Made by a program: the position numbers and the translations under genes. A stretch of 64,000 bases of DNA. Origin: Candidatus Binatia bacterium. Lineage in GTDB: Bacteria; Desulfobacterota; Binatia; Bin18. The stretch spans positions 704,001 to 768,000 of the forward strand of contig OY761159.2 in the NCBI GenBank assembly GCA_963664395.2. The letters are read 5' to 3'. Below the pieces are notes generated by a model. That model made no database searches. It saw only the letters and a list, made by a program, of their open reading frames with translations, and was not told the origin of the DNA. Each line of letters starts with the position of its first letter. Within the stretch, counting starts at the first letter, position 1. Shown here in pieces: positions 44,847-58,547 of the stretch.

Positions 44847-44946
44847 TTAGAGCAAATTACGATGCTGTGGAGCCGCCCGCTGGATGCCGGATCACGTCCG
44901 GCATGACGGAAGCTACATGGCTAGAGCCTAGCGTAAAACGCTCTAG
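44847..44946. mobile_element. ~100-bp MITE-like element with TAGAGC...GCTCTA ends enclosing a CGTC-type REP palindrome
   Basis: TTAGAGCAAATTAC / GTAAAACGCTCTAG imperfect terminal inverted repeats. Internal ATGCCGGA-TCACG-TCCGGCAT-GACG at 44880-44908. Confidence 0.45.
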
Positions 44947-46652
44947 CCGGAAGCCCGCGGACCCCGCAGCAGCTGACCGGGCAACGCGCCGGTGTGTTCG
45001 TTGTGACGCAACACAACCTCGCCGTTCACGACTGTGGCCAGAAAGCCCTGAGCCTTTTGCTTGAGTCGCCTCGCGCCAGCCGGCAGATCATACACGACCT
45101 CGGGTAACTGGGGTGCGACGGTCTGGGGATCAAAGATCACCACATCGGCGTTCCAGCCCTCACGCAACAACCCTCGTCCGCTCAGACCCCAGTGAGAGGC
45201 AGGAATGAAACTCAACTGGCGCACCGTCTCTTCCAGCGTCAGCGCCTGCTTCTCCCGAACCCAATGGCCCAGGACATGGGTTTGGAGTGAGGAGTCCATG
45301 ATCTGTGAGACATGCGCGCCGGAGTCTGAAAAAGTGATGACCGAGCGCGGGTGGCGCATCATTTCCAGCACGTGATCTTGATTCTGGTTGACGAGCGGTT
45401 GGAGGAAAAATTGTTTCAAGCCCTTCTCCAACGCCAAGTCAATAAACACCTCGACCGGATCTTGCTGACGCTCCTCAGCAATCTCGGCGATTGAACGATA
45501 CGGTGGAGTGGCGGAGTCCATGACAAACAGCCACTTAAAATTCGCCGCGCGCGGCTCCGCGCCGACCCCACTGTTCGGATTGCGCGGCTTGTGGTGGGCG
45601 GCTTCAACAAGCTTCTGGCGTGTTTGCGGATTACGCAGCGCGGCTTCCTGGGCGGCCAATGGGAGTTTTCTGATATCGCACCACACCGGCAAGGTATCGA
45701 ACGGCGTGGCCGTCTCGAATGACAGCACAACATTCAGCGGACGACTATGCACCTGGATGAACATCCGCCCACCCGCCGCGGCTGTTTCGTCGGCCAGGCT
45801 AAAAAACGGCTGCCACATATTGGGCGCTTGGCGGCTGCTGAACATACCAAACGTGACCGGCACGCCGGTATCAACGGCAAGCGCTTTGAGCCGACCGAGA
45901 TATTCATCAATCCGTTCGGGGTCGAACCGGGCGTCTTCGTTGGCAATTTCAAACACACCGGCGTTCAGCTCACCCATGACGCCCACCAGTTGGCGTACCT
46001 CCTCCCAGGTCGCCAGCCGGCTGGCAACCGGTTGACCGTCCGGCGTCTGATGGTTGTGGGTGCGTGAAGTGCTCAGTCCGATAGCACCAGCCTGAATAGC
46101 GGCCCGCACTTCGCGCTGCATGGCTTCCAGGTCTGTCGCACTCGCTGCTTGGGTAAATGCGCGCTCACCCATGATATAGGTACGCAGCGCCGAGTGACCG
46201 ATATAAGCGGCATAGTTAATGCCCTTCGGTAGCGCCTCAACCGCATCCAGATATTCCGGGTAGGTGGTCCAACTCCACGCAATACCCGCTTCCATTGCTT
46301 CCGGGGCAATATCTTCTGCCCGTTCAAGATTGCGCATCACCAGCAGTTTGTCCTGCTCGGCACACGGCGCGAGAGAAAAACCACAATTCCCCATCACCAC
46401 ACTGGTGACACCGTGCCAGCAGGAACACGTCCCCAGCGGGTCCCAGAACACCTGGGCATCCATATGGGTGTGGGCATCGACAAAGCCCGGAGCGACCACA
46501 TGCCCCTCGGCGTCAATCACCTCGTGCGCACTGTCGCGGATTCTGCCGATAGCCGCGATTTTTCCGTGGCTGATACCGACGTCAGCCTGAAAGCGGGGCA
46601 GTCCCGAACCGTCAATAAGCGTACCGTTTTTGATAAGCAGATCGTATTGCAT
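44943..46652 (-). CDS. N-acyl-D-amino-acid deacylase family amidohydrolase (copy 2)
   Basis: Collinear paralog of 7176..8888. AAGGAGG RBS before MQYDL. Confidence 0.9.
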   Translation of the reverse strand: MQYDLLIKNGTLIDGSGLPRFQADVGISHGKIAAIGRIRDSAHEVIDAEGHVVAPGFVDAHTHMDAQVFWDPLGTCSCWHGVTSVVMGNCGFSLAPCAEQDKLLVMRNLERAEDIAPEAMEAGIAWSWTTYPEYLDAVEALPKGINYAAYIGHSALRTYIMGERAFTQAASATDLEAMQREVRAAIQAGAIGLSTSRTHNHQTPDGQPVASRLATWEEVRQLVGVMGELNAGVFEIANEDARFDPERIDEYLGRLKALAVDTGVPVTFGMFSSRQAPNMWQPFFSLADETAAAGGRMFIQVHSRPLNVVLSFETATPFDTLPVWCDIRKLPLAAQEAALRNPQTRQKLVEAAHHKPRNPNSGVGAEPRAANFKWLFVMDSATPPYRSIAEIAEERQQDPVEVFIDLALEKGLKQFFLQPLVNQNQDHVLEMMRHPRSVITFSDSGAHVSQIMDSSLQTHVLGHWVREKQALTLEETVRQLSFIPASHWGLSGRGLLREGWNADVVIFDPQTVAPQLPEVVYDLPAGARRLKQKAQGFLATVVNGEVVLRHNEHTGALPGQLLRGPRASG

Positions 46653-46758
46653 CCTCCTTCTATAAACGAGGCGGAAGCTCGAAAGCAAGGCATGGAAAAC
46701 CGGCCGAATCTGACGTAGAGTATGCACGACAAATGGTAACCATAAGGAGGGAAATCCC

Positions 46759-47871
46759 ATGTCAGAGTATAAACTCATTTCAGCAGACTCACATTTCGTT
46801 GAGCCACCCAGCATGTGGGCCGAACGTATGGATAAAAAGTTTCGCGACCGCGCCCCCCGCACCGTCAAAGGACTGAACGGCCGCGACGGGGAGTGGTTCG
46901 TGTGTGAGAATATCACCCCGATGTCAGTCGCCGGCTTCTTTGGTGCCGGCGTGCCCTCGCCAGACCTTCCTGAGCACAGCAAAAAGGGCTTTGATGAAGC
47001 GCCCAAGAGTGTCTGGGACGCCGCCTATCGGATCGCGGATCAGGATCGGGACGGCGTACAGGCAGAGGTGATTTATACCTCCATGGGGATGCCGCTGTTC
47101 GGGTTGGACGACGCGGAACTCCGCTATTCCTGCTTTCGGGCCTTTAACGGCTGGGCGACCGAGTATTGCAGCTACGACCCGAAACGTCTCGTCCCACTCG
47201 GCCTTATCACGCTGGAAGACATTCCACTGGCCGTGGACGAACTGCAACGTATTGCCAAACAGGGCATGCGGGGCGCCATGATCTGGGCCGAGCCGCCGGA
47301 CGACCGGCCCTATAGTCATCCCGACTATGAGCCTTTTTGGGCCGCCGCCCAGGACCTCAATATGCCGCTCTCGCTCCACATTCTCACCGCCCGGAGCGGC
47401 ACGGGCGCAAACCAGGCGAGTGGCAAGGGTTTTCTGCTTTCCCTGGCGACCCTGCATCACCAGATTGAACGCTCGATTTCCGAGATGGTCTATGGCGGTG
47501 TGCTTGAGAAGTTTCCCAGCCTCAAGATCGTCTCGGCTGAAAACGATGTCGGCTGGATGGCTTATCTGATGTACCGCCTTGATATCGTGCAGCGGCGGCT
47601 CGGTGCGCTGGGAAACATGGACCTACCGCTACGTGCCAGTGATTATATCAAGCGGCAAGTCTACGCGACCTTTATCGCCGACCCGGTGTTTGTGGATTCT
47701 CTCCATCGCTACGGCCCGGACAACACCATGTGGTCGTCCGACTATCCGCATACGGCCGCAACCTTCCCACGTTCGCAGGAGATCGTGAAAAAACGGCTGG
47801 GCGCACTTCCCGAAGAAGATTTGCACAAGATCGTGTATGGAACGGCCGCACGCGTATACGGCTTGGAGTAA
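46759..47871 (+). CDS. Amidohydrolase_2 family protein
   Basis: ISADSH..EP, P.SLH, E.D.GW and WSSDYPH motifs. Confidence 0.9.
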   Translation: MSEYKLISADSHFVEPPSMWAERMDKKFRDRAPRTVKGLNGRDGEWFVCENITPMSVAGFFGAGVPSPDLPEHSKKGFDEAPKSVWDAAYRIADQDRDGVQAEVIYTSMGMPLFGLDDAELRYSCFRAFNGWATEYCSYDPKRLVPLGLITLEDIPLAVDELQRIAKQGMRGAMIWAEPPDDRPYSHPDYEPFWAAAQDLNMPLSLHILTARSGTGANQASGKGFLLSLATLHHQIERSISEMVYGGVLEKFPSLKIVSAENDVGWMAYLMYRLDIVQRRLGALGNMDLPLRASDYIKRQVYATFIADPVFVDSLHRYGPDNTMWSSDYPHTAATFPRSQEIVKKRLGALPEEDLHKIVYGTAARVYGLE

Positions 47872-47972: not shown

Positions 47973-48524
47973 ATGAAACTCTCACAGCCCCGCATCACAC
48001 CAATCGGAGAAGATGAATGGACGGACGAACAACGCGAGTCACTAGAAGCCCGCTCCCGGGCGGGACATGTCTATAATGTCATTGGCACTATGGCTCGCCA
48101 CTGGGAAGCCTCAAAAAAGTTTCAGGTCTGGGCTTACCACGTCATGGGTGACACCTCGGCCTTGGTCCCGAGAGAGCGGGAGCTGTTAATCCTGCGCATC
48201 GGCTGGCAGTGTCAGGCCGAATATGAATGGGGTCAGCATGTGATTTTCGGTAAAGAAGCCGGCCTGACCGATGAAGAAATCGCACGGATTAAAACCGGCC
48301 CGGACGCCGCCGGCTGGGACCTATTTGATGCCACCCTCCTACGTGCCGCAGACGAACTGCACGCAGACGCGTTTATCAGCGACGCCACCTGGGCAGCCTT
48401 GAGCGAGCGCTATACGACCCAACAACTCATGGACGTGGTCTTTACCGTCGGACAGTACAATATGGTGTCCATGGCGCTCAACTCCTTTGGGGTGCAACTG
48501 GACGACGGCGTCAAAGGCTTCTGA
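47973..48524 (+). CDS. Carboxymuconolactone decarboxylase/AhpD-like protein
   Basis: RERELLILR.G....AEYEWGQH and LLRAADEL...ISDATW motifs. Confidence 0.88.
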   Translation: MKLSQPRITPIGEDEWTDEQRESLEARSRAGHVYNVIGTMARHWEASKKFQVWAYHVMGDTSALVPRERELLILRIGWQCQAEYEWGQHVIFGKEAGLTDEEIARIKTGPDAAGWDLFDATLLRAADELHADAFISDATWAALSERYTTQQLMDVVFTVGQYNMVSMALNSFGVQLDDGVKGF

Positions 48525-48591
48525 CAGTGCCCTGCCCTGGGAAGAATAGGCCAAGTAACAAGACTCTCACCCGGACACCGGTCGCCTTGCC

Positions 48592-51500
48592 GTGGATTTT
48601 CTCGCACTAGACCTCGAAGTCGGACGGCACGACAACCGCATCCATGCCTTTGGCGCAGTGCGGTCGTGGAGCGGCAAGGCCCAAACATTTCAGGGGGGCG
48701 ACCTAAACGCGGCCCTGGAAAACCTGGACACGTTTGCCAAGGGCGCGGATTACCTGCTGGGCCATAATCTGATCGCGTTCGACCTGCCTCATCTGACCGC
48801 GGCAAAACCCGGCCTGCGGCTGTTGCGCCTACCCGCAGTGGATACCTTGCGGCTCAATCCCCTGGCCTTCCCCCGCCATCCCTACCACCATCTGGTCAAG
48901 CACTATCAGGACGGACAACTCAAACGCGGACGTATAAACGACCCGGAGTTGGACGCCCGGCTCTGTCTGGACGTTTTCGGCGATCAGCAAAAAGCGCTGA
49001 GTGAAACGGACCCCGACTTGCTGACCGCCTGGCACTGGCTGACCGGCGCGGACGACGCCGGGGCCGGCTTTGACGCTTTCTTTGCGGCCCTGCGAGGGGC
49101 GGCCCGACCGTCCCACGTGGATGCCTATGGGGCGATCCGCGACCGGCTCGCGGACACGACCTGTCTCACCCAGAGCCGCACGGTGCTGCAAGAAGTCCTG
49201 GCGGATACGGCCGGCAACGGCTGGGGGCTGGCCTATGCGCTGGCTTGGCTGTCGGTAGCCGGCGGGAACTCGGTCATGCCGCCCTGGGTGCGGCATCAGT
49301 TCCCCGAAGCCGGGGTGCTGGTACGCCGGTTGCGCGACACGGCCTGCACCAGTCCCGCCTGCGAGTGGTGTCGGGAACGGCACGACGCCCGCAAGGAACT
49401 GACCCGCTGGTTCGGGTTTGCCGACTTTCGTCCGGAGCCCCACGACAAGGACGGCCAGCCCATGCAGCAGGCCATTGTTGAGGCGATCATGGCCGGACAG
49501 CACGTGCTGGGCATTTTGCCGACCGGCACCGGCAAATCACTGTGCTATCAAATCCCGGCCCTGTCCCGGTACGACAAGACCGGCGCGCTGACCGTGGTCA
49601 TCTCACCGCTGGTGGCGCTCATGGCCGACCAAGTCTCCGGCCTGGAATCCCACGGCGTCGTGTCCGGCGTGACCATCAACGGCATGCTGTCCATGCCCGA
49701 GCGCTCCGCGGCCCTGGAGCGGGTGCGCCTGGGCGATGCCAGCATCCTCATTGTCTCACCCGAGCAACTGCGCAGCCGTACCGTGCGCCGGGTCCTGGAA
49801 CAGCGTGAGATCAGCCTCTGGGTGCTGGACGAGGCGCATTGCCTGTCACGCTGGGGCCACGACTTCCGGCCCGACTACCGCTACGTGGCACGCTTCATCC
49901 GCGAGAAGGCACCCGACGGACAAATAGTCTGCCTGACGGCAACGGCCAAGCCCGAGGTGCGGGAAGACATACTCACCCACTTTCGTGACAAGCTCGGCGT
50001 TGACCTCAGCGTCTTTGACGGCGGCGCTCAACGCACCAATCTGGAATTCGTGGTCGTGCCGACGACGGGCGGTGAGAAGTTCGCTCATATTCACCAAATC
50101 CTGACCGCGGACCTGCCGTCGGGCAGGCCCGGCGGCGCCATCGTCTACTGCGCGACACGCGCCCAAACCGAATACATCGCCCAGTATCTCCGCGCCAAGC
50201 ATATCGACGCGGCTCACTTCCACGCCGGCCTGTCACCGGAGACCAAGAAGAACGTGCAGCAGCGCTTCATCTACGGCGACCTCCGGGTGATCGTCGCCAC
50301 CAACGCCTTCGGCATGGGCATAGACAAACCGGACGTGCGCTTGGTCATTCACGCCGATATCCCCGGCTCGCTGGAGAACTATGTGCAGGAAGCGGGCCGG
50401 GCCGGACGCGACCGGGAAACGGCGCGCTGTGTGCTGCTCTACACGACCGACGATATCGAGCGACAGTTCGGTATGTCGGCCCGCTCGCGGCTGACTCGGC
50501 CAGAAATCCACGCCATCCTGAAGGCGCTGCGCAACCTGGACCGCAAGAAGCGCATGGACGGCCAAGTCGTTGCCACCGTGGGGGAGATACTTGGCGAGGA
50601 CGAAGACGCCGCGTTCGAGCGCGACTCCGCGACCGACGATACGCGCGTGCGCACCGCCATATCCTGGCTGGAGGAAGCGAAATTATTGACCCGCGAGGAG
50701 GACCGCGTGCAGGTATTCCCCTCCTCCCTGCGGGTCGGCTCACTGGAAGAAGCCCGAGCCAAGCTGGCCAAGACCACCGTTACAGCCGACTATCGCCGGC
50801 GGTTGCTAGCTATTACCGAGAGCGTGATCGACGCCGACCCCGACGAGGGCATCTCCACCGACGAGTTGATGACAGTCTCCGGGTTGCCGGCGGAACAGGT
50901 GCGCCGCGCCCTGCACGACCTGGAGCGGCTGGGGATCGCCAACAACGACACTGTGCTGACCGCCTTTGTCCACACCGGGGTCCAGCACGCCTCGCCAAAA
51001 CGCTTGGACGAGGCCGCAGACCTGGAGCACGCCCTCATCGTCGCCCTGCAAGAGGCGGCCCCGGACATGGGGAAAGATGAAACCTCAACGCTACACGTGC
51101 GCCTCGTCACCCAACGGCTCAAGGACACCGGCCATACATCCGCCCTGCCGGAACGCGTAGTGCGCATTCTGCGCGGTCTTGCCCTGGACGGACGCGGCGA
51201 GGAGGGTGGCAAGGGCAGCCTGGGCTTACGCGGCCTGGGCCGCGAGGCCGTACAGATCACGCTTCAGCGCGAGTGGGCCGCGCTGATAGAGACCGCGGAG
51301 CGGCGCCGGGCCGCGGCCCGGGTGCTGCTGAACCACCTGCTCGACAGCCTGCCTTCGGGGAGTCGAGGCACGGACCTGTTAGCCGAAACAACCCTCGGCA
51401 AGCTGTTGAACGCGATCCGGTCTGACCTGGAGTTAAAGACCTCGGTCAGGAATCCCGAACGACTGCTGGACCGTGCCTTGCTGTGGCTGCACGAACAGGA

Positions 51501-53673
51501 AATCATCCGCCTCAATAAGGGACTGGCCATATTCCGCCCCGCCATGTCCATCCGTCTGAGTCAGGAACAGCGCCGCTTCACTAACGCCGACTTCACACCG
51601 CTCAAGCTCCATTACCAGGACCAAGTGCTCCAGATTCACGTCATGGCGGAGTACGTCCAGCGCGGCTTGCAGGCCATGGCCGACGCATTGGCTCTCGTCA
51701 TGGACTATTTCAGCCTGAAGCAGCAGGATTTTTTGCGCCGCTGGCTGCCCACCCGCGACAAGGAAATTACACGCCAGACCACGCCGGAGTCGTGGCGGTC
51801 CATTGTGGAAGACCTGAAGAATCCCGTCCAGCAACGCATTGTCGCCGACGACCGAGAACAGACCAGCGTCCTGGTACTGGCCGGCCCCGGCTCTGGCAAG
51901 ACGCGGGTCCTGGTCCATCGAATCGCCTATTTATTGCGCGTGCGGCGCGAAAACCCGCGTGGCATTCTGGCACTTGCCTATAATCGCCATGCCGCGGTAG
52001 AAATTCGTCGCCGTCTGGCCGAACTGCTCGGCGACGACGCCCGAGGCGTGACCGTGCTCACCTGTCACGGCTTTGCCATGCGGCTGGTGGGTGCCAGCTT
52101 CAGCGGGCGCGCGGAACGCCTGGACAACGACGCCTTCCGAGAGATACTCCGGCAGGCGGTGGACCTGCTGCGGGGCGCCGGGCTGCCGGCGGACGACGCC
52201 GATGAGCAGCGGGCGCGGCTGCTGGCCGGTTTCCGCTGGATACTCGTGGACGAATACCAGGACATCGGTCCGGAGCAGTACGAGTTGATCTCGGCCCTGG
52301 CCGGCCGTACCCTGGCCGACGAGGACGACAAACTCAGCCTGTTTGCCGTGGGTGACGACGACCAGAACATCTACGCTTTCGACGGGGCGTCGGTCGAGTT
52401 TATCAAGCGTTTCGAGGCGGACTATCGGGCCAGACCGGCCTTCCTGACGGACAATTACCGCTCCACGGCCCATATTATTGCCGCGGCCAACACGGTTATT
52501 GAGCCGGCCGCACGGCGCATGAAATCCGACCATTCTATCCATATTGACCGGGCACGCGCCCGGCAGCCGCTCGGCGGAGTCTGGGAGGAGTTGGACCTCG
52601 TGTCGCGCGGACGGGTGCAGATTATCCCCATACGGCGAGACCCGATCGCACAGGCCCAGGCGGCCATAGCGGAATTGCAGCGTCTGTCCGCCCTGTCAGC
52701 GGACTGGGACTGGTCCGGCTGCGCGGTCATTGCCCGCGAGTGGCGACACCTGGAGCCGGTACGGGCCGGCTGCGAAGTCTACGGCATTCCGGTCCAGATG
52801 GGCAACGAGGAAATCCCAGGGTTTTGGCGGCTGCGGGAGACCCAGACATTGCTTGTCTGGCTACGCCGGGGCGAAACCGACCTCGTGGACAGGAGCGTCC
52901 TCAGCGCTTGGTTGGACGCCCAAGTCTCGGGCCGCTGGACCCAACTGCTGCGAGAAGCCATAGACGAATACGCCCTGGAAACCGGCGGGACGGAAACTCC
53001 GCTGGATCACTTCATCGAGTGGCTGGCGGAGTGGGGGCGAGACGTGCGCCGTCGGCAGCGCGGCCTGTTACTGTTGACCGCACATCGCGCCAAAGGGCTG
53101 GAGTTCGACCACGTGGTCGTTCTGGACGGCGGCTGGAACAGCGTCGGCCGCGGCGAAGACGCAGACGCACCACGCCGGCTCTACTACGTGGCCATGACCC
53201 GTGCCCGGCAGACCTTGGCGCTGACCTGCTTTGAAAGACCCCATTCGTTACAGACAATGCTGCACGCTCACCCTTCGGTCCTGCACCGGCCCCCGGTCGC
53301 ACTGCCACCCTACCCCCCGGAGATGACAACCCGCTACCAGCGGCTCAGCCTGCGCGATGTTGATCTAGGCTTCGCGGGACGCCAACCGGCCAGCAACCCG
53401 GTGCAGCGCGCTATTACCGCTCTTTCGCCTGGCGGCCCGCTTCGAGTCCGTACCACGCAGCAGCCGTGGGCCTTGCTGGATCGCGCCGATAACGTGGTGG
53501 GCCGCCTGGCCAAAGGGTATACGCCACCGGACGCAATGCGGCTCCAATCGGCAACGGTTCTGGCCGTTGTGACGCGCAGTCGGGCCGACTCTGAACCACA
53601 ATACCAAGACGCTCTCAAATGCGAGGAGTGGGAGGTGGTCGTGCCGGAACTGGTGTTTCAACGCGCGGGCTAA
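48592..53673 (+). CDS. Giant helicase fusion: DnaQ-like exonuclease + RecQ (SF2) + UvrD/PcrA (SF1)
   Basis: Exonuclease: LDLE, GHN..FD. RecQ: PTGTGKSLCYQ, DEAHC...WGHDFRPDY, ATNAFGMG, QEAGRAGRD. UvrD: GPGSGKT, DEYQD, VGDDDQNIY, NYRS, TAHRAKGLEF, YVAMTRA. Confidence 0.92.
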   Translation: MDFLALDLEVGRHDNRIHAFGAVRSWSGKAQTFQGGDLNAALENLDTFAKGADYLLGHNLIAFDLPHLTAAKPGLRLLRLPAVDTLRLNPLAFPRHPYHHLVKHYQDGQLKRGRINDPELDARLCLDVFGDQQKALSETDPDLLTAWHWLTGADDAGAGFDAFFAALRGAARPSHVDAYGAIRDRLADTTCLTQSRTVLQEVLADTAGNGWGLAYALAWLSVAGGNSVMPPWVRHQFPEAGVLVRRLRDTACTSPACEWCRERHDARKELTRWFGFADFRPEPHDKDGQPMQQAIVEAIMAGQHVLGILPTGTGKSLCYQIPALSRYDKTGALTVVISPLVALMADQVSGLESHGVVSGVTINGMLSMPERSAALERVRLGDASILIVSPEQLRSRTVRRVLEQREISLWVLDEAHCLSRWGHDFRPDYRYVARFIREKAPDGQIVCLTATAKPEVREDILTHFRDKLGVDLSVFDGGAQRTNLEFVVVPTTGGEKFAHIHQILTADLPSGRPGGAIVYCATRAQTEYIAQYLRAKHIDAAHFHAGLSPETKKNVQQRFIYGDLRVIVATNAFGMGIDKPDVRLVIHADIPGSLENYVQEAGRAGRDRETARCVLLYTTDDIERQFGMSARSRLTRPEIHAILKALRNLDRKKRMDGQVVATVGEILGEDEDAAFERDSATDDTRVRTAISWLEEAKLLTREEDRVQVFPSSLRVGSLEEARAKLAKTTVTADYRRRLLAITESVIDADPDEGISTDELMTVSGLPAEQVRRALHDLERLGIANNDTVLTAFVHTGVQHASPKRLDEAADLEHALIVALQEAAPDMGKDETSTLHVRLVTQRLKDTGHTSALPERVVRILRGLALDGRGEEGGKGSLGLRGLGREAVQITLQREWAALIETAERRRAAARVLLNHLLDSLPSGSRGTDLLAETTLGKLLNAIRSDLELKTSVRNPERLLDRALLWLHEQEIIRLNKGLAIFRPAMSIRLSQEQRRFTNADFTPLKLHYQDQVLQIHVMAEYVQRGLQAMADALALVMDYFSLKQQDFLRRWLPTRDKEITRQTTPESWRSIVEDLKNPVQQRIVADDREQTSVLVLAGPGSGKTRVLVHRIAYLLRVRRENPRGILALAYNRHAAVEIRRRLAELLGDDARGVTVLTCHGFAMRLVGASFSGRAERLDNDAFREILRQAVDLLRGAGLPADDADEQRARLLAGFRWILVDEYQDIGPEQYELISALAGRTLADEDDKLSLFAVGDDDQNIYAFDGASVEFIKRFEADYRARPAFLTDNYRSTAHIIAAANTVIEPAARRMKSDHSIHIDRARARQPLGGVWEELDLVSRGRVQIIPIRRDPIAQAQAAIAELQRLSALSADWDWSGCAVIAREWRHLEPVRAGCEVYGIPVQMGNEEIPGFWRLRETQTLLVWLRRGETDLVDRSVLSAWLDAQVSGRWTQLLREAIDEYALETGGTETPLDHFIEWLAEWGRDVRRRQRGLLLLTAHRAKGLEFDHVVVLDGGWNSVGRGEDADAPRRLYYVAMTRARQTLALTCFERPHSLQTMLHAHPSVLHRPPVALPPYPPEMTTRYQRLSLRDVDLGFAGRQPASNPVQRAITALSPGGPLRVRTTQQPWALLDRADNVVGRLAKGYTPPDAMRLQSATVLAVVTRSRADSEPQYQDALKCEEWEVVVPELVFQRAG

Positions 53674-53702
53674 GCCGCCCCGTTGTTTCGTTATGCGGAG
53701 AG

Positions 53703-53751
53703 CAAGCCGATTTGTCAGAGGCCGTGGAGCCTTTCGGCTTTCATCAACATA
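53703..53751. repeat. Direct repeat copy A (pairs with 55500-55549)
   Basis: CAAGCCGATTTGTC(A/G)GAG(G/A)CCG...TC(G/A)GCTTTCATCAACATA occurs at both sites. Confidence 0.8.
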
Positions 53752-53824
53752 AGCCCGCAACGCCGGCAAAATCCGCGTTCCTTAAAAAAGACTATGGCCT
53801 TTAGGCTTTCCTCCTGTCGCCCGT

Positions 53825-54226
53825 TTACGGAGCCGGTTTTCTGATCGACCGCTCTGCGGCTGTATAGTATCGAACATCTTCATTCTTTATTCGGATGATT
53901 TTTCCCATGCGTTGTGCTTTTGTTCGGAACTCATCGTGCCGGACTAACACTCGTAAAGACTGTGGAATTTCGCGGACTCGGCTATCCGGTATGGCAAAGC
54001 ACACGATACAAAAGCGTGGGTCTGCCCGGACCTTTCGCCAAAAATCCTGCTCGTTGATCGTGACAAATGTTGGCTGGGGCTGTTGCCGTAGTAAGTCAGG
54101 AATAGCGTCGTCTTTGATGATGCTGTTCGGACGCAAATCCAGGATGTATTGAACCGCTCCTCGATACCATTTTGCGATGTCTCGCTCAATATCTCGTCCT
54201 AATAACTGTTCGTCCAGAACAATCAT
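53825..54226 (-). CDS. PIN-like (DUF5615/VapC45-type) putative toxin
   Basis: MIVLDEQL...IKDD.I...FVT.N..DF. Translationally coupled to DUF433. Confidence 0.7.
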   Translation of the reverse strand: MIVLDEQLLGRDIERDIAKWYRGAVQYILDLRPNSIIKDDAIPDLLRQQPQPTFVTINEQDFWRKVRADPRFCIVCFAIPDSRVREIPQSLRVLVRHDEFRTKAQRMGKIIRIKNEDVRYYTAAERSIRKPAP

Positions 54227-54507
54227 CAGGCAGATGCTAAGTGGGGGAGGGTCTTGATGAACTGATCTGTTACCAAGCGGACCGCCTCCATTATTGCAGC
54301 CTGGGAGACACGACCGCGATAACCTTCGACGATCTCATCGATATTTTCTCCCGCCGCTAGCCGCTCGAGCGTGCCGGTGATCTCAACACGCGTGTATTTG
54401 AAAGTGGGACGGCCCCCACATACGCCCGCCGCTCGTACGACATAGTCCCCAAGCGGGTAATAGTGGTAGGGTTCTCCAGCAACTATTTCGGTCACGAAAG
54501 CTGACAT
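54226..54507 (-). CDS. DUF433 putative antitoxin
   Basis: GVCGGRPTF..TRV....LE.LAAG..IDEI...Y...I.EA. Confidence 0.85.
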   Translation of the reverse strand: MSAFVTEIVAGEPYHYYPLGDYVVRAAGVCGGRPTFKYTRVEITGTLERLAAGENIDEIVEGYRGRVSQAAIMEAVRLVTDQFIKTLPHLASA

Positions 54508-54728: not shown

Positions 54729-55157
54729 TTATACGGAGGACAGACGCCGGAAATGCTCCCAGGCGATACGTGGTGACCGGACAGTCACCGGCCCGCGGCA
54801 GTTCGACGGAAAATGTTTCAGGTTACCGCTCACCAGCGTTCGTGGGGTTGTCAGGAGGGCAACCTCCAGGAATACCGAGTCATCCGCGTCAGGCGGGTCC
54901 CGGTGCGACCAGGGCAGCGCGGTGACGTGTTCCTGGAATTGCAAGATAGCAAAAAAGGCATCCTGCCAAGCTCGTACTATGCCAAGCCGTGGTCGGGCTA
55001 AGACCTCCCGGTATTCCAACTCAATACGGTCGTCAAACGCAAGCCGCAACCGACGCGCCAAGAGCATATCAACGAGGCGACCCGGTGGCCCAAGAGGCGA
55101 GAGGAGGCCCGACACAAGGACGTTGGTATCCAGCACCCAGACAGGAGCCTCAGCCAC
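54729..55157 (-). CDS. PIN domain (VapC-like) putative toxin
   Basis: VLDTNVLVSGL...EY.EVL.RP...PD.DD..FLEVA....LVSGN.KHFP. Confidence 0.88.
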   Translation of the reverse strand: MAEAPVWVLDTNVLVSGLLSPLGPPGRLVDMLLARRLRLAFDDRIELEYREVLARPRLGIVRAWQDAFFAILQFQEHVTALPWSHRDPPDADDSVFLEVALLTTPRTLVSGNLKHFPSNCRGPVTVRSPRIAWEHFRRLSSV

Positions 55158-55461
55158 GCCGTACTCTTTTTTTCCGTGCCCGTCGTGCGGCTCTGATCTC
55201 CCGCTCTAGGTCTGCGGGCGTGACGGCCTCCGCGTCGTTTTGGGAGGATCGTGTCCGCATCGCGCGCACTGCCCGGCGGGCACGGGCAAACACGATTTCG
55301 CCGATATCCTCAAATAGTGTGGCGTCACTGGTGGGAATCATGATGCTGCGGGGGACCCCGTCTTTGGTGACTACCAGCGCCCCTTCCCGTTCAAGTTCCG
55401 CCCACACCTTCCCTGGCGCTGCGGTTAACATTCGTGAGGCGATTGTCTTCATGCACGACAT
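55150..55461 (-). CDS. Phd/YefM-like antitoxin (start may be 55452)
   Basis: MKTIASR.L......VW..L......VVTKDG.P. Overlaps the PIN gene start. Confidence 0.75.
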   Translation of the reverse strand: MSCMKTIASRMLTAAPGKVWAELEREGALVVTKDGVPRSIMIPTSDATLFEDIGEIVFARARRAVRAMRTRSSQNDAEAVTPADLEREIRAARRARKKRVRRG

Positions 55462-55499: not shown

Positions 55500-55549
55500 C
55501 AAGCCGATTTGTCGGAGACCGCTAAACCCCCTCAGCTTTCATCAACATA
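55500..55549. repeat. Direct repeat copy B, overlapping the 3' end of the LLM gene
   Basis: Contains the last codons (YVDES*) of 55532..56545 and matches 53703-53751. Confidence 0.8.
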
Positions 55550-56545
55550 CTTTCGCAGCGCCGGTAGCACTCGCTCGCCCAATAAACGTAGACCCTGTGC
55601 GGTTGTGAGGCCGTGGGGGGTGCCGAACTCGACCCGTCGGGCGCCAGCTTCGAATAGCGCCGCGGCTTGATTGGCTACTTGGTCCGGCGTTCCGGCAAAA
55701 GCCAGACGCTGGAGCAAGTCGTCGGAAATATAGCTTCCGGCTTGCTCAAAATCGTAGGCGTCGGTCGCTTCCTTAAGTCGGGCCAATAACTCGGGCTCAA
55801 TGGCTAAGCTGTGGTCCAGCGTGGCGATAATCGGCAGATAGAGCGCGGCTTCTCGCCGGGCGAGAGCGCGGGCGGCTTTGCCGTCCGTATCAACCACTGT
55901 GACCGCTCCGACCACTAAGCCAATTTCGTCAGCCTGCCGTCGGACCTGCCCAGCACCCTTGGCTATGGCAGCGCGCATCTGAGACACTGCGGTCGGGTTC
56001 GTTGTCCCGCCGAGTTTAACCTCCGCGATGTCTTCAATACACGCCGCAAGCGTCTTCTGCCCCCACGTTCCCAACAGAAAAGGAAGCTCTGACCGGTGTA
56101 TCTTCCAGCGCAGAGCCTCGCCGCCGGCTAAGGAAAACGCCTCTCCTCGATAGGGTTGGGTCGATTGGCTAAGCAGATGCCGAATGCAACCAAACGCCTC
56201 CCGGAGTGCGGTGATGGGTCGCCGGGGGCGCAGACCGACAAAATCCAGCCAAGCCCCACGCGCCAAGCCCAAATAGGCCCGTCCATGTGACGCTTCATCA
56301 AGAAGAGCGATATTGCCGGCAATATTGATGGGGTGACAGGTAAACGGATTGACCGCCGCGGGGCCGATACGGACGCGGCTCGTGTGTCGCGCGATTTCCA
56401 GCAGCGGCAGCCAGGCCGGCTGATACAGCATGTCATTATAGACGCTCACGCCGGCAAAGCCGAAGTCTTCAACGGTTTTCGCCAGCGGCCCGTAGGCCGA
56501 GAGGGGCTTATCCGTCTGAAAGGCAATGCTGACCGAACGGGTCAT
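55532..56545 (-). CDS. LLM class oxidoreductase, Mer-like (possibly F420-dependent)
   Basis: IGPAAVNPFT.HP, LDEAS.GRA.LG.ARG and C-terminal VEFGTPHG motifs. Confidence 0.85.
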   Translation of the reverse strand: MTRSVSIAFQTDKPLSAYGPLAKTVEDFGFAGVSVYNDMLYQPAWLPLLEIARHTSRVRIGPAAVNPFTCHPINIAGNIALLDEASHGRAYLGLARGAWLDFVGLRPRRPITALREAFGCIRHLLSQSTQPYRGEAFSLAGGEALRWKIHRSELPFLLGTWGQKTLAACIEDIAEVKLGGTTNPTAVSQMRAAIAKGAGQVRRQADEIGLVVGAVTVVDTDGKAARALARREAALYLPIIATLDHSLAIEPELLARLKEATDAYDFEQAGSYISDDLLQRLAFAGTPDQVANQAAALFEAGARRVEFGTPHGLTTAQGLRLLGERVLPALRKYVDES

Positions 56546-56611: not shown

Positions 56612-57490
56612 CTACGCACCGGGCGCAAACGCCTCAACCGTGCGCATATCGGGTAAGGACTCATCGTCGGCCTTGACCGGCAGAAAGCAGACATGCGTGG
56701 CGCCGGCTTTGAGATGGGCGTCGATACGGTCCTGAATCTGCTCTTCGCTGCCCCAGGCAACGATGGCGTCCACCAGGGCATCGCTGCAACCGTCCTCAAA
56801 GTCCGCGTCCTGCCAGCCCAGGTTTTTCAGGTTGTTGGTGTAATTGGGCAGCCGAGGAACATAGGTCTTCATATACTGCCGCGCGGCGGCGCGGGCCTTG
56901 GTCGCATCCTTTTCGAGGATGACGGCTTGGGCGGCGCAGATCCAGGCGTCGGGGCCGATCTGCTCGCGCACCTTGGCTGTATGTTCCGGCGGCACGAAAT
57001 AGGTGTGCGTCCCTTGGGTCTGTTCTGCGGACAACGCAAGCATCTTGGGATGCAGAGCCGCAATCACGATGGGGGCCGGCTCTTTGGGTTTCGGCGCCTG
57101 GTAAAAGACGTCTTTCAGTTTCGGCAGGTATTCCTTCATATAGCTATACGGCTTGTTATAGTCGTGACCACGCAGGTTGGACACAATCGGCTTGTGACTG
57201 ACACCAATGCCGAGCACAAACCGACCGCCGGACAGCTCGGCCACCGTATTCGTTGCCGCGGCCATGGTATAGGCGTCACGCGCCCAGATATTGGCAATCC
57301 CGGTCGCGATAGACAACTTCTCGGTATTGTTCAGCAGATACGCAGCATGCGCAAACGGCTCACGTCCGACCGCTTCGGGTATCCACAGCGTCTTATAGCC
57401 GGCCTGCTCAACCGTCTGGGCAAATTGGGCGCTCTGCGGAGCCGTCATACCGTCCAGAAAAAACCATACCCCTACTTTTCCGATATCCAT
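56612..57490 (-). CDS. LLM class F420-dependent oxidoreductase (MSMEG_4141-like)
   Basis: ATGIANIWARD, GRFVLGIGVSH, Y.VPPEHT...R and H..AGA.HVC motifs. Confidence 0.85.
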   Translation of the reverse strand: MDIGKVGVWFFLDGMTAPQSAQFAQTVEQAGYKTLWIPEAVGREPFAHAAYLLNNTEKLSIATGIANIWARDAYTMAAATNTVAELSGGRFVLGIGVSHKPIVSNLRGHDYNKPYSYMKEYLPKLKDVFYQAPKPKEPAPIVIAALHPKMLALSAEQTQGTHTYFVPPEHTAKVREQIGPDAWICAAQAVILEKDATKARAAARQYMKTYVPRLPNYTNNLKNLGWQDADFEDGCSDALVDAIVAWGSEEQIQDRIDAHLKAGATHVCFLPVKADDESLPDMRTVEAFAPGA

Positions 57491-57674
57491 ACAAACCTCC
57501 TCAGACAAAGTCTCGCAAAAATCTGGTATTTGCAACGAACCGCACCATATGCCGGGCGTTATTGGGCTGTCAATCTTGGAGCTGCTTGAGAGCCGCTCTC
57601 CCTCGTCAAGACTCGCTCGGATGTGGTATAGCAGCAGGCAGGAGAAATCTCGCTAGACAAAGAAGGAGGCAGCT

Positions 57675-58547
57675 ATGAAATTCGGCATCCATTATTCTCT
57701 GGGTGTTGGCATGAATCCAAGCATGGACGATTATGTGCGCGTGGCCGTAAAGGCCGAAGAACTCGGCTATCACTCAGCCTGGTTGGGCGACCACGTTGTC
57801 ATCCCGGAAAAAATTGAATCTACCTATCCGTATACGCCCGATGGCTCAGCCAGCTTTCCTCGGCGCTTGCCCTTTCCAGATACCTTTGTCGTCCTGGCTG
57901 CCCTGGGCGCTCATACCAAAACCATCAAACTCGGCACCAGCGTAATCGTCGTCCCGTACCGCAATCCGCTCCCGGTGGCCAAGGCGGTGGCGACGGTCGA
58001 TATGGCGACCAATGGCCGCTATCTTTTTGGCGTTGGGGTGGGCTGGCTGGCGGAAGAGTTTGAGGCGTTGGGAGAGAAATTCTCTGAACGGGGCAGCCGC
58101 ACCAGAGAGTATCTTCAGGTCATGAAAGCCGTCTGGCAGGAAGAGGCCGCCAGCTTTGAGGGCAAATATTTTTCCTTTCCCGACCTGTACGCCCTGCCGC
58201 TGCCGGTCCAAAAGCCTCACCCGCCCATCATCTTTGGTGGCGAGAGTATGCCGGCCCTCAAGCGCGTAGCCGACCTGGGCGACGGCTGGCAGCCCGGTCC
58301 GGTCCCGCTCGAAACCTTGAGAAAACGTATGGGACAACTGAGAGAGCTTATGGCCGAACGTGGCCGGGATTTTTCGCAGTTGTCAATCTCCATGCTGGGC
58401 GATGTCAAAGACCTTCAGGAAAATCCCGATACGCTGGCCGCACTCGGTGAACTCGGCGTCCAAGAGATGGTGTTATTTATGGCAACCCTGGACACGGATA
58501 AGACGCTGGCACAGATGGAAGAAGCTGCGAACGCATTTATGTCCTAG
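57675..58547 (+). CDS. LLM class F420-dependent oxidoreductase (Rv2161c-like)
   Basis: DHVVIP....STYPY, GVGVGWL.EEF.ALG and P.PVQKPHPPI..GG motifs. Confidence 0.85.
   Translation: MKFGIHYSLGVGMNPSMDDYVRVAVKAEELGYHSAWLGDHVVIPEKIESTYPYTPDGSASFPRRLPFPDTFVVLAALGAHTKTIKLGTSVIVVPYRNPLPVAKAVATVDMATNGRYLFGVGVGWLAEEFEALGEKFSERGSRTREYLQVMKAVWQEEAASFEGKYFSFPDLYALPLPVQKPHPPIIFGGESMPALKRVADLGDGWQPGPVPLETLRKRMGQLRELMAERGRDFSQLSISMLGDVKDLQENPDTLAALGELGVQEMVLFMATLDTDKTLAQMEEAANAFMS

Follow-up and report, generated by a model that had tools for sequence, protein, structure and literature searches.

What is the task of a bacterial protein that joins an exonuclease-like domain and two complete helicase motors in one polypeptide chain? 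The question is raised by a locus of a Candidatus Binatia bacterium (GTDB lineage Bacteria; Desulfobacterota; Binatia; Bin18), where we analyzed a stretch of 64,000 nucleotides (NCBI GenBank assembly GCA_963664395.2, contig OY761159.2, positions 704,001 to 768,000 of the forward strand), hereafter the window, whose first letter is position 1. A preliminary description, prepared from the letters alone, had pointed to a single open reading frame (ORF) in this window as a possible anti-phage, anti-plasmid or specialized repair machine standing alone beside toxin-antitoxin genes. We find that this gene, which encodes a giant RecQ-UvrD helicase, is an accessory, horizontally exchanged and solitary unit with every module under purifying selection. 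We read its product as a solitary enzyme for DNA 3' ends whose role lies in conflict with foreign DNA, as a single-gene defence or exclusion enzyme, and we hold the chance of this reading to be about even.

The gene proved to be one uninterrupted frame, as had been described; inspection of the translation of 48592..53673 revealed no internal stop, and the start region is shared with congeners (protein P0002 opens with MDSLALDLEV). From the N- to the C-terminus, the protein of 1693 amino acids (aa) consists of a DnaQ-fold domain (N-domain), a helical domain with four cysteines, a RecQ-type superfamily 2 (SF2) core, a conserved linker of ~450 aa, a UvrD-type superfamily 1 (SF1) core and a β-barrel tail (Table 1). 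The Pfam families above their curated cut-offs are DEAD (aa 290-457), Helicase_C (496-607), UvrD-helicase (from 1078), AAA_19, UvrD_C (1490-1547) and UvrD_C_2; no Pfam family covers aa 1-269, the linker or the tail, faint linker matches aside. NCBI labels the members of the family as 'RecQ family ATP-dependent DNA helicase' only.

Both motors, for which complete motif sets had been claimed, do have full motif sets. The RecQ-type core carries motif 0, PTGTGKS (Walker A, 310-316), DEAH (413-416), an aromatic-rich loop (419-429) and QEAGRAGRD (motif VI, 599-607). It scores 316.6 bits on the recQ_fam model TIGR00614 (cut-off 219.8), which places it in the RecQ subfamily, and its PDB profile matches are the cores of RecQ, RECQ5, RECQ1, BLM and WRN (WRN E about 1.5e-8). 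On the equivalog model of housekeeping RecQ, TIGR01389, it reaches 359.7 bits against a cut-off of 640.2 and covers only profile positions 3-337 of 591. Pfam finds no RecQ_Zn_bind, RQC or HRDC in the 1693 aa, in keeping with the earlier remark that the RecQ C-terminal cysteine cluster and HRDC are not evident. The UvrD-type core carries GPGSGKT (Walker A, 1098-1104), DEYQD (1220-1224), GDDDQNIY (motif III, 1254-1261) and VAMTRAR (motif VI, 1533-1539), and its scores on PF00580 (137.9 bits, cut-off 23) and PF13361 (49.3 bits, cut-off 25.6) place it in the UvrD/Rep/PcrA group of SF1. Its matches to the equivalog models of that group are partial, with 163-173 bits against cut-offs of 1144 for uvrD, 911 for pcrA and 951 for rep. 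Judged by these profiles, the protein classifies as a domain-level member of both the RecQ family and the UvrD-like SF1 family and not as an orthologue of RecQ, UvrD, PcrA or Rep. Since the same genome encodes a separate RecQ (~735 aa, 43% identical across the core) and three other UvrD-family genes, the fusion is an addition to these enzymes and not a replacement. To our knowledge, no characterized enzyme unites two complete motors from different superfamilies, as SF2 RecQ and SF1 UvrD are united in this chain, and the family adds to them two domains of kinds that handle 3' ends.

In its AlphaFold model (predicted local distance difference test, pLDDT, of 94 for the N-terminal region), the N-domain adopts the RNase H-like exonuclease fold of the DnaQ-like DEDD family, and Foldseek matched it to the exonuclease domain of E. 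coli Pol II (1.9e-4), a DnaQ domain (2.5e-4) and S. aureus DinG (6.8e-4). No Pfam family, RNase_T included, matches aa 1-269 at E ≤ 1. The DEDD-type motifs and the cysteine cluster noted earlier are all in place, with LDLE at aa 6-9, GHNLIAFD at 57-64 and NDPELD at 116-121. In an alignment of 55 sequences, all four DEDD carboxylates (D7, E9, D64 and D121) are invariant, as are G57, H58, D84, T85, L86, Y98, H99, L101, K103, P118, C191, R248, C252, C257 and C260, and N116, which occupies the DEDDh His position five residues ahead of the last Asp, is nearly so; the position four residues ahead holds D, N or S. The ExoII wording GHNxxxFDLPHL, which we take to be nearer to family-B polymerases than to epsilon, agrees with the Pol II match and is not a test of it. 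The following domain (aa 141-262) is all-helical in the model with pLDDT mostly above 90, and its four invariant cysteines, three of which form a C-x4-C-x2-C cluster at aa 252-260 just ahead of the RecQ core, make a probable zinc site.

The linker between the motors has a mean column identity of 70% among 32 sequences. Its Pfam matches are weak (DprA_WH, RPA_C and DUF4423 at E 0.01-0.09, faint winged-helix hints), a PDB profile search returned no relative and only chance-level transaldolase rows, and its ESM Atlas scores do not exceed 0.81. The tail, which contains a nearly invariant G and ends in W-E-V-x-x-P-E, is modeled (pLDDT 93.9) with the β-barrel fold of HIRAN domains. In a structure search independent of Foldseek, 3k2y (8.6), HLTF HIRAN (5.9) and Rad5 (4.8) took ranks 1-3 of 48,161 chains, and none of the remaining chains scored above 4.4; Foldseek alone gave no match at E ≤ 0.001 and weak rows with HIRAN entries on top. 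Pfam HIRAN (PF08797) matched none of 32 tails at E ≤ 5, no Pfam family at all was found in the tails of these 32 members, and a PDB profile search with the tail contained no HIRAN chain at E ≤ 10 and chance-level proteasome rows only. The earlier suggestion of a HIRAN-like tail is thus upheld by the fold, for which HIRAN domains are the best structural matches, and not by the sequence: the tail is probably HIRAN-like by fold only. A literature search for 3K2Y together with HIRAN found no paper.

The fusion belongs to a large family. A word-indexed search yielded 6926 relatives among 8000 scored candidates; DEAD, Helicase_C and UvrD-helicase co-occur in all 120 listed homologs (1296-1902 aa); a search with the N-domain only gave 1225 clusters at 50% identity; and of the 584 stretches matched when one genome per species was scanned, 573 were confirmed, from which ~4500 are estimated in the collection of 185,579 species. 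The 80 loci that we kept, at 58-89% identity, come from Binatia, Chloroflexota, Pseudomonadota, Latescibacterota, Actinomycetota, Nitrospirota, Acidobacteriota and others. All 33 divergent representatives of full length have the five regions in the same order, with identities per region as low as 15-40%, and the longer forms of the family differ by insertions only. Comparison of the window with six relatives (85-92% identity) by the method of Nei and Gojobori gave ratios of nonsynonymous to synonymous substitution rates (dN/dS) of 0.13-0.16 over the gene as a whole. The values for the single modules are 0.13-0.19 (exonuclease fold), 0.14-0.31 (cysteine domain), 0.11-0.19 (RecQ), 0.08-0.14 (linker), 0.13-0.18 (UvrD) and 0.17-0.23 (tail). 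Every module is under purifying selection, including the exonuclease domain whose third motif had been called degenerate, and the range of 0.08-0.31 across all of them indicates that all parts are being kept.

Conservation of the protein goes together with a patchy occurrence of the gene, which we followed in 41 genomes, 25 of the window's genus and 16 from other genera of the class. At least one intact full-length copy is present in 13 of the 25 congeneric genomes; ten of these carriers have a copy at 85-100% identity, one of the ten with a second copy at 68%, and two more genomes carry a 71% copy. The gene is split between two contigs in the congener G008 and is a pseudogene in two others, with one TGA and a break near aa 1306-1328 in G022 (C1:396820-401891) and with four pieces and TAG stops in G014 (C1:2047538-2052611). 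In nine of the 25, several of them 97-100% complete, the window query found no copy. Outside the genus, one of the 16 genomes of the class has a copy (43% identity), and an even draw across the phylum gave a match at E ≤ 1e-150 in 6 of 301 genomes and 5 of 198 genera. Phylum copies outside the window's genus are 34-48% identical to the query, whereas copies in Nitrospirota, Gammaproteobacteria, Chloroflexota and Latescibacterota reach 67-71%. A FastTree phylogeny built from 66 full-length proteins groups the window protein and that of its Binatia relative L001 with one sequence from Nitrospirales and one from a gammaproteobacterium (support 99), shows Binatota in at least two places, has a Spirochaetota sequence inside Binatota (99) and pairs a Desulfobulbus sequence with Competibacter (96). 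The phylum labels still cluster on the tree, with 15 changes where the minimum possible is 10 and the shuffled mean 34.5. The tree points to vertical descent within lineages combined with repeated transfer between phyla. The gene is accessory and horizontally exchanged, and strictly vertical inheritance in conserved core synteny, the pattern that the preliminary description had set against its own defence proposal, is not what we found.

The helicase occupies the same slot, between two core genes (Table 1), in at least seven congeners (L001, L082-L086 and G019), and both core genes are retained in five congeners that lack it (G002, G004, G015, G016 and G023). We aligned the slot intervals of G002, G004, G016 and G023, that of G015 being split over contigs. 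In G002, the slot is a gap of ~570 bp that still contains a relic, 88% identical to window 53623-53700, a segment made up of the final 50 bp of the helicase ORF and adjoining downstream bases; the relic is a deletion scar. In G004, the same relic, here of the final 40-50 bp of the ORF, lies beside an AbiLi/AbiLii pair (PADLOC E 1.3e-97 and 5e-25), a PIN_3 gene and a permease gene. The slots of G016 and G023 likewise hold AbiLi/AbiLii (E 5e-100; RloB Pfam E 1e-33 to 1e-36), in G016 together with a transposase fragment. The slot is therefore a variable site at which the helicase, the AbiL abortive-infection system and toxin-antitoxin pairs replace one another.

No conserved partner gene accompanies the helicase. 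When all ORFs of the 80 loci and the window were clustered, no neighbour family occurred in more than 6 of the 81 loci, and no small conserved ORF (at least 35 aa, within ~0.9 kb) was common to more than four. The gene is a solitary unit, and the earlier statement that it stands alone is confirmed. Among 237 matching plasmid records, 20 contain at least 80% of the protein, the carriers being Thiothrix, Paracoccus, Cereibacter, Rhizobium, Microvirga, Croceicoccus, Sulfitobacter, Allochromatium and cyanobacteria (~32% identity). In the three plasmid contexts that we examined, the surroundings are a type I-D CRISPR-Cas system 4 kb away, two toxin-antitoxin pairs, and an adjacent type I restriction system with an HNH gene, respectively. 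In Nostoc punctiforme PCC 73102, plasmid pNPUN01 encodes an intact relative of 1675 aa (L099 5746-10773), and on pNPUN02 the relative (L098 5800-10818) appears as three consecutive coding sequences, annotated as RecQ family, UvrD-helicase domain and '3'-5' exonuclease', adjoining an ISNCY transposase gene; the pNPUN02 copy may have been broken, or the split may be natural.

Accessory status, patchy occurrence, transfer between phyla, decay, plasmid carriage and a slot interchangeable with AbiL together favour conflict with foreign DNA, and we rank this role as more likely than repair. As to what such an enzyme would act on, the RecQ and UvrD/PcrA/Rep families translocate 3'→5' on single-stranded DNA, and DnaQ-type domains bind and trim 3' ends. 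The HIRAN domain of HLTF captures a free 3'-OH end, and Kile et al. reportedly found in 2015 that fork reversal is driven through its binding of 3' ends. From the 3' preferences of these four recognizable module types, we infer an enzyme directed at 3'-ended DNA; the polarity, end recognition and nuclease activity of this particular protein are ascribed to it on the same grounds, and the defence role is ascribed from the place and the inheritance of its gene. Because the two motors would share one polarity, they could not travel jointly along both strands of one duplex; action on two arms of a branched molecule, or pulling from two sides, is feasible. The tail, the N-domain or both might dock on a free 3' end or on a junction of single-stranded and duplex DNA, as offered by linear or rolling-circle phage or plasmid DNA, by incoming conjugative DNA, or by broken or stalled forks. 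The two ATP-driven motors, kept apart by the rigid conserved linker, would then unwind or reel in the DNA arms, the branched or linear DNA would be taken apart, and its 3' end would be trimmed by the N-domain or only held. A bolder version of this reading, which we offer tentatively and consider clearly less probable than the general one, is that the family constitutes an undescribed class of single-polypeptide immune or exclusion enzyme, in which the HIRAN-like barrel and a catalytically altered DnaQ domain sense free 3' ends on replication intermediates of phages or plasmids and the two helicases, set at a fixed distance by the rigid linker, dismantle both arms of a foreign replication fork. 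If so, bacteria would have built an 'anti-replication' machine from parts that eukaryotes use for fork reversal (WRN, HLTF, FBH1).

Several observations weigh against a role in conflict with foreign DNA. First, the neighbourhoods lend it little statistical weight. We sorted the neighbours at the first 38 of 47 loci with at least 9 kb on both sides, comparing up to two ORFs per side within 2.5 kb (near, 143 ORFs) with up to two per side beyond 6.5 kb (far, 6.5-10 kb away, 144 ORFs). Defence-type ORFs, a class that combines defence, toxin-antitoxin and restriction genes by our own sorting of Pfam names and that is ambiguous for four of the 20 near ORFs, number 20 of 143 near and 11 of 144 far (Fisher p 0.09); loci with such a gene number 13 of 38 near and 8 of 38 far (Fisher p 0.30). 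At least one defence-type gene, near or far, is found in 18 of the 38 loci. The excess, taken without a genome-wide baseline, is modest, not significant and no more than suggestive. The co-location of homologs with defence genes that had been proposed as a check is thus seen at 13 loci and does not significantly exceed its control, and the defence proposal of the preliminary description, still an inference, draws strength from the slot shared with AbiL. About half of the loci lie amid housekeeping genes (aconitase, PEPCK, GreA, ATP synthase delta, MnmA), the window flanks outside the toxin-antitoxin pairs are metabolic genes, and most copies within the genus sit in one conserved slot, which means vertical inheritance over that range. 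Second, the nuclease arm may be dead. The fifth catalytic residue, the His of DEDDh or the Tyr of DEDDy enzymes four to five residues before the last Asp, is absent from the N-domain; as the general-base residue of ExoIII is missing, 3'-5' exonuclease activity is uncertain. The invariant Y98 and H99, in a conserved loop near ExoIII, might stand in for it. Of the exonuclease that had been announced, the DnaQ fold and the four carboxylates are there, and the activity is not assured. Third, the protein evolves slowly, with 60-70% identity across phyla and dN/dS near 0.15, and many defence proteins evolve faster. Fourth, no model of PADLOC-DB 2.0.0 spans the protein, its matches being generic helicase matches to one motor each (DpdF aa 262-669, PsyrT 289-650, GajB 1207-1401), and a literature search that had subscription-journal papers outside its scope found no paper on a RecQ-UvrD fusion family, in line with the earlier remark that no function was known for this architecture. 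Finally, all modules also fit fork remodelling by enzymes such as WRN, HLTF and FBH1.

This last point leads to the strongest alternative, which we consider less likely: a specialized repair or fork-remodelling enzyme, a bacterial counterpart of WRN plus HLTF or FBH1, kept as an optional stress-tolerance gene. In such an enzyme, the tail would hold the nascent 3' end at a stalled fork, the motors would unwind its two arms, and the exonuclease-like domain would trim or protect the end. Slow evolution, housekeeping neighbourhoods and the parallel with WRN, HLTF and FBH1 keep this role alive. As in WRN, a DEDD exonuclease-fold domain precedes a RecQ-family SF2 core in one chain, and WRN cores match the RecQ region by profile. 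WRN belongs to the DEDDy class. Unlike WRN, the helicase has no RQC or HRDC detected by Pfam, its linker has no PDB relative by profile, its ExoIII lacks the Tyr of that class, and it has a second, SF1 motor and a HIRAN-like tail; WRN is eukaryotic, whereas this family is found in bacteria, as an accessory gene that spreads horizontally. In the chains of HLTF and Rad5, a SNF2 double-strand translocase that contains a RING domain follows the HIRAN domain. The HIRAN domains of these fork-reversal enzymes are the best-named matches of the tail, and 3'-end binding by that of HLTF is the property said to drive reversal; in our protein, unlike HLTF and Rad5, the HIRAN-like domain is C-terminal to a UvrD-type helicase and has no sequence similarity to Pfam HIRAN. 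FBH1, of the UvrD family, reverses forks according to two reports (PMC12946210, PMC13252103). Strong and even purifying selection would suit a repair enzyme, as would the many loci amid housekeeping genes, one of which adjoins the gene for Fpg. Yet a match in 6 of 301 genomes of the phylum, and loss, replacement or pseudogenization within a single genus, speak against it; the genome already has RecQ and three UvrD-family genes, the slot is shared with AbiL and toxin-antitoxin pairs, plasmid copies lie next to restriction and CRISPR genes, and no repair gene is a conserved neighbour.

A second alternative, to which we attach a low probability, is that the helicase serves a mobile element in plasmid or island replication, in establishment after transfer or in counter-defence, and that the chromosomal copies are left-over cargo. 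The 20 plasmid records, conjugative Nostoc plasmids included, and the transfer between phyla would fit, and homology between distant copies ends at the gene borders: between the congeners G013 and G019, similarity spans only from ~60 bp inside the helicase ORF at one end to ~60 bp inside the same ORF at the other and does not extend into the flanks. The G+C content across the gene (0.63-0.67, window 48500-53500) is above that of both flanks (0.55-0.60), and transposase genes lie beside some copies. Against this, genes for integrases, transposases, relaxases or replication are not conserved among the neighbours, and in the census above mobile-element genes account for none of the 143 near ORFs of the 38 loci and for four of the 144 far ones. 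A search for terminal direct or inverted repeats around the gene found none; none of the 26 matching records among 50,697 phage records contains the whole helicase; the 20 plasmid records are mostly of very large size, with 18 at about 150 kb or more and 12 of these above 450 kb; and the gene has been stable in one slot across at least seven congeners. That the fusion is an artefact of assembly or gene calling, joining two or three genes, has a negligible probability. We found nothing in its favour; the window belongs to an assembly of 14 contigs with 5.4% estimated contamination. Thousands of proteins show the same uninterrupted frame, which cultured strains also carry on complete chromosomes and plasmids, and the ORF is covered in full and at even depth by contigs of two further studies, each piece showing 0-8 differences. 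dN/dS stays within 0.08-0.31 in every module, the linker between the motors among them, and the chimera considered in the preliminary description is contradicted by many independent assemblies.

Compared with known bacterial systems, the helicase has partial likenesses only. The helicase of DinG is XPD-like. Gram-positive DinG, a DnaQ-like exonuclease joined to a helicase, is the best structural match of the helicase N-terminus; it has one motor in its S. aureus and Bacillus-type forms, whereas here a RecQ-type motor, a second motor and a HIRAN-like tail follow the N-domain. B. subtilis DinG is an active 3'→5' exonuclease, as described in PMC12525004, and our N-domain, unlike it, lacks the general-base residue. 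The combination of helicase and nuclease recalls the defence systems Hna, Nhi, Gabija (GajB) and Hachiman (HamAB), and the UvrD part scores 181 bits on the GajB model. Hachiman (PMC12278908) and Hna (PMC13381803) are reported to act on DNA with ends or damage, and the HamB C-terminus is described as a barrel reminiscent of oligonucleotide/oligosaccharide-binding folds (PMC12278908). Unlike in Gabija, Hachiman and PsyrTA, no GajA, HamA or PsyrA is conserved beside the helicase in the 81 loci, and unlike the helicase-nuclease defence systems, the protein has two motors of different superfamilies in one chain and no known phage phenotype.

The family is large, spans many phyla and has no paper that we could find. 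An immune role would make it a new single-gene system whose mechanism resembles that of eukaryotic fork remodellers; a repair role would make it a bacterial WRN/HLTF analogue open to genetics. Cultured and tractable carriers are at hand in Cereibacter sphaeroides, Rhizobium leguminosarum, Paracoccus versutus, Allochromatium vinosum DSM 180 and Nostoc punctiforme PCC 73102.

Table 1. Features of the helicase gene, its slot and its surroundings (window positions unless a locus is named; modules with their residues)
Feature	Position	Strand	Basis or remark
Helicase gene	48592..53673	+	Single ORF, 1693 codons and stop, GTG start
DnaQ-like (DEDD) exonuclease fold, aa 1-140	48592..49011	+	55-sequence alignment, AlphaFold model, Foldseek
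Helical domain with four invariant cysteines (C191, C252, C257, C260), aa 141-262	49012..49377	+	55-sequence alignment, model
RecQ-type SF2 helicase core, aa 263-625	49378..50466	+	Pfam, NCBIfam, PDB profile matches
Conserved linker, cysteine-free, aa 626-1073	50467..51810	+	Column identity, dN/dS
UvrD/PcrA-type SF1 helicase, aa 1074-1550	51811..53241	+	Pfam, NCBIfam, motifs
HIRAN-like β-barrel tail (probable), aa 1574-1693	53311..53670	+	Predicted structure search
CMD-family gene, one side of slot	47973-48524		
Luciferase-like monooxygenase gene, other side of slot	55532-56545	-	
Copy of 3' end of luciferase-like gene and bases behind	53703..53766	.	True copy 55500-55564
Putative toxin-antitoxin pair	53825..54507	-	93-aa DUF433 (54226-54507, E 4.2e-9) and overlapping 133-aa ORF
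PIN_3 toxin-like gene and overlapping upstream 103-aa ORF	54729..55461	-	PIN_3 gene 54729-55157; context only
AbiLi/AbiLii (AAA_21 and RloB) pair in slot of G023	L088 1930-3906		
AbiLi/AbiLii (AAA_21 and RloB) pair in slot of G016	L089 2086-5086		
AbiLi/AbiLii (AAA_21 and RloB) pair in slot of G004	L090 5007-6979		

The toxin-antitoxin islet beside the helicase, which the preliminary description had noted, is borne out only in part, by the DUF433 gene and its overlapping ORF of 133 aa, for which Pfam, NCBIfam and PADLOC gave no family and whose product may be an undescribed toxin partner of DUF433; a second pair, the PIN_3 gene (PF13470 E 2.6e-14; TIGR00305 31.7 bits, cut-off 29.15) with its 103-aa ORF, had gone unmentioned. 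The DUF433 pair is not beside the helicase in L001, L082, L083 and L084, and it is context and not a helicase partner. A 64-bp imperfect direct repeat (two blocks, D4 and D1, 91% and 82% identical, at a spacing of 1797-1798) brackets a 1.8-kb block with both pairs, and congeners connect 53700 directly to about 55117 or 55532, which indicates that the block is a later insertion beside the helicase. The repeat pattern resembles that left by insertion with target duplication or by recombination between cassettes.

Two metatranscriptome runs gave contigs with 0-1 differences only across 53218-53900, which may stem from opposite-strand toxin-antitoxin transcripts or DNA carry-over, and RNA pieces with 4-10 differences over the remaining gene, which may come from relatives; given these possible origins, we did not count the contigs as proof of helicase transcription. 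A promoter and terminator scan gave counts equal to those of shuffled sequences and nothing useful at the ends of the gene. At the loci of the 71% copies in G013 and G017 (L094 and L095), 15 of the 16 ORFs within 7 kb have no Pfam family in each case, so that the flanks are either an island of unknown genes or the result of ORF over-calling in G+C-rich DNA. Downstream of the slot, three luciferase-like monooxygenase paralogues stand in a row, the flanking gene being followed by 56612-57535 (-) and 57675-58547 (+). Upstream, the longest ORFs of two amidohydrolase genes, 44943-47006 (-) and 46759-47871 (+), overlap by ~250 bp, and the start codon of one of them probably lies further in.

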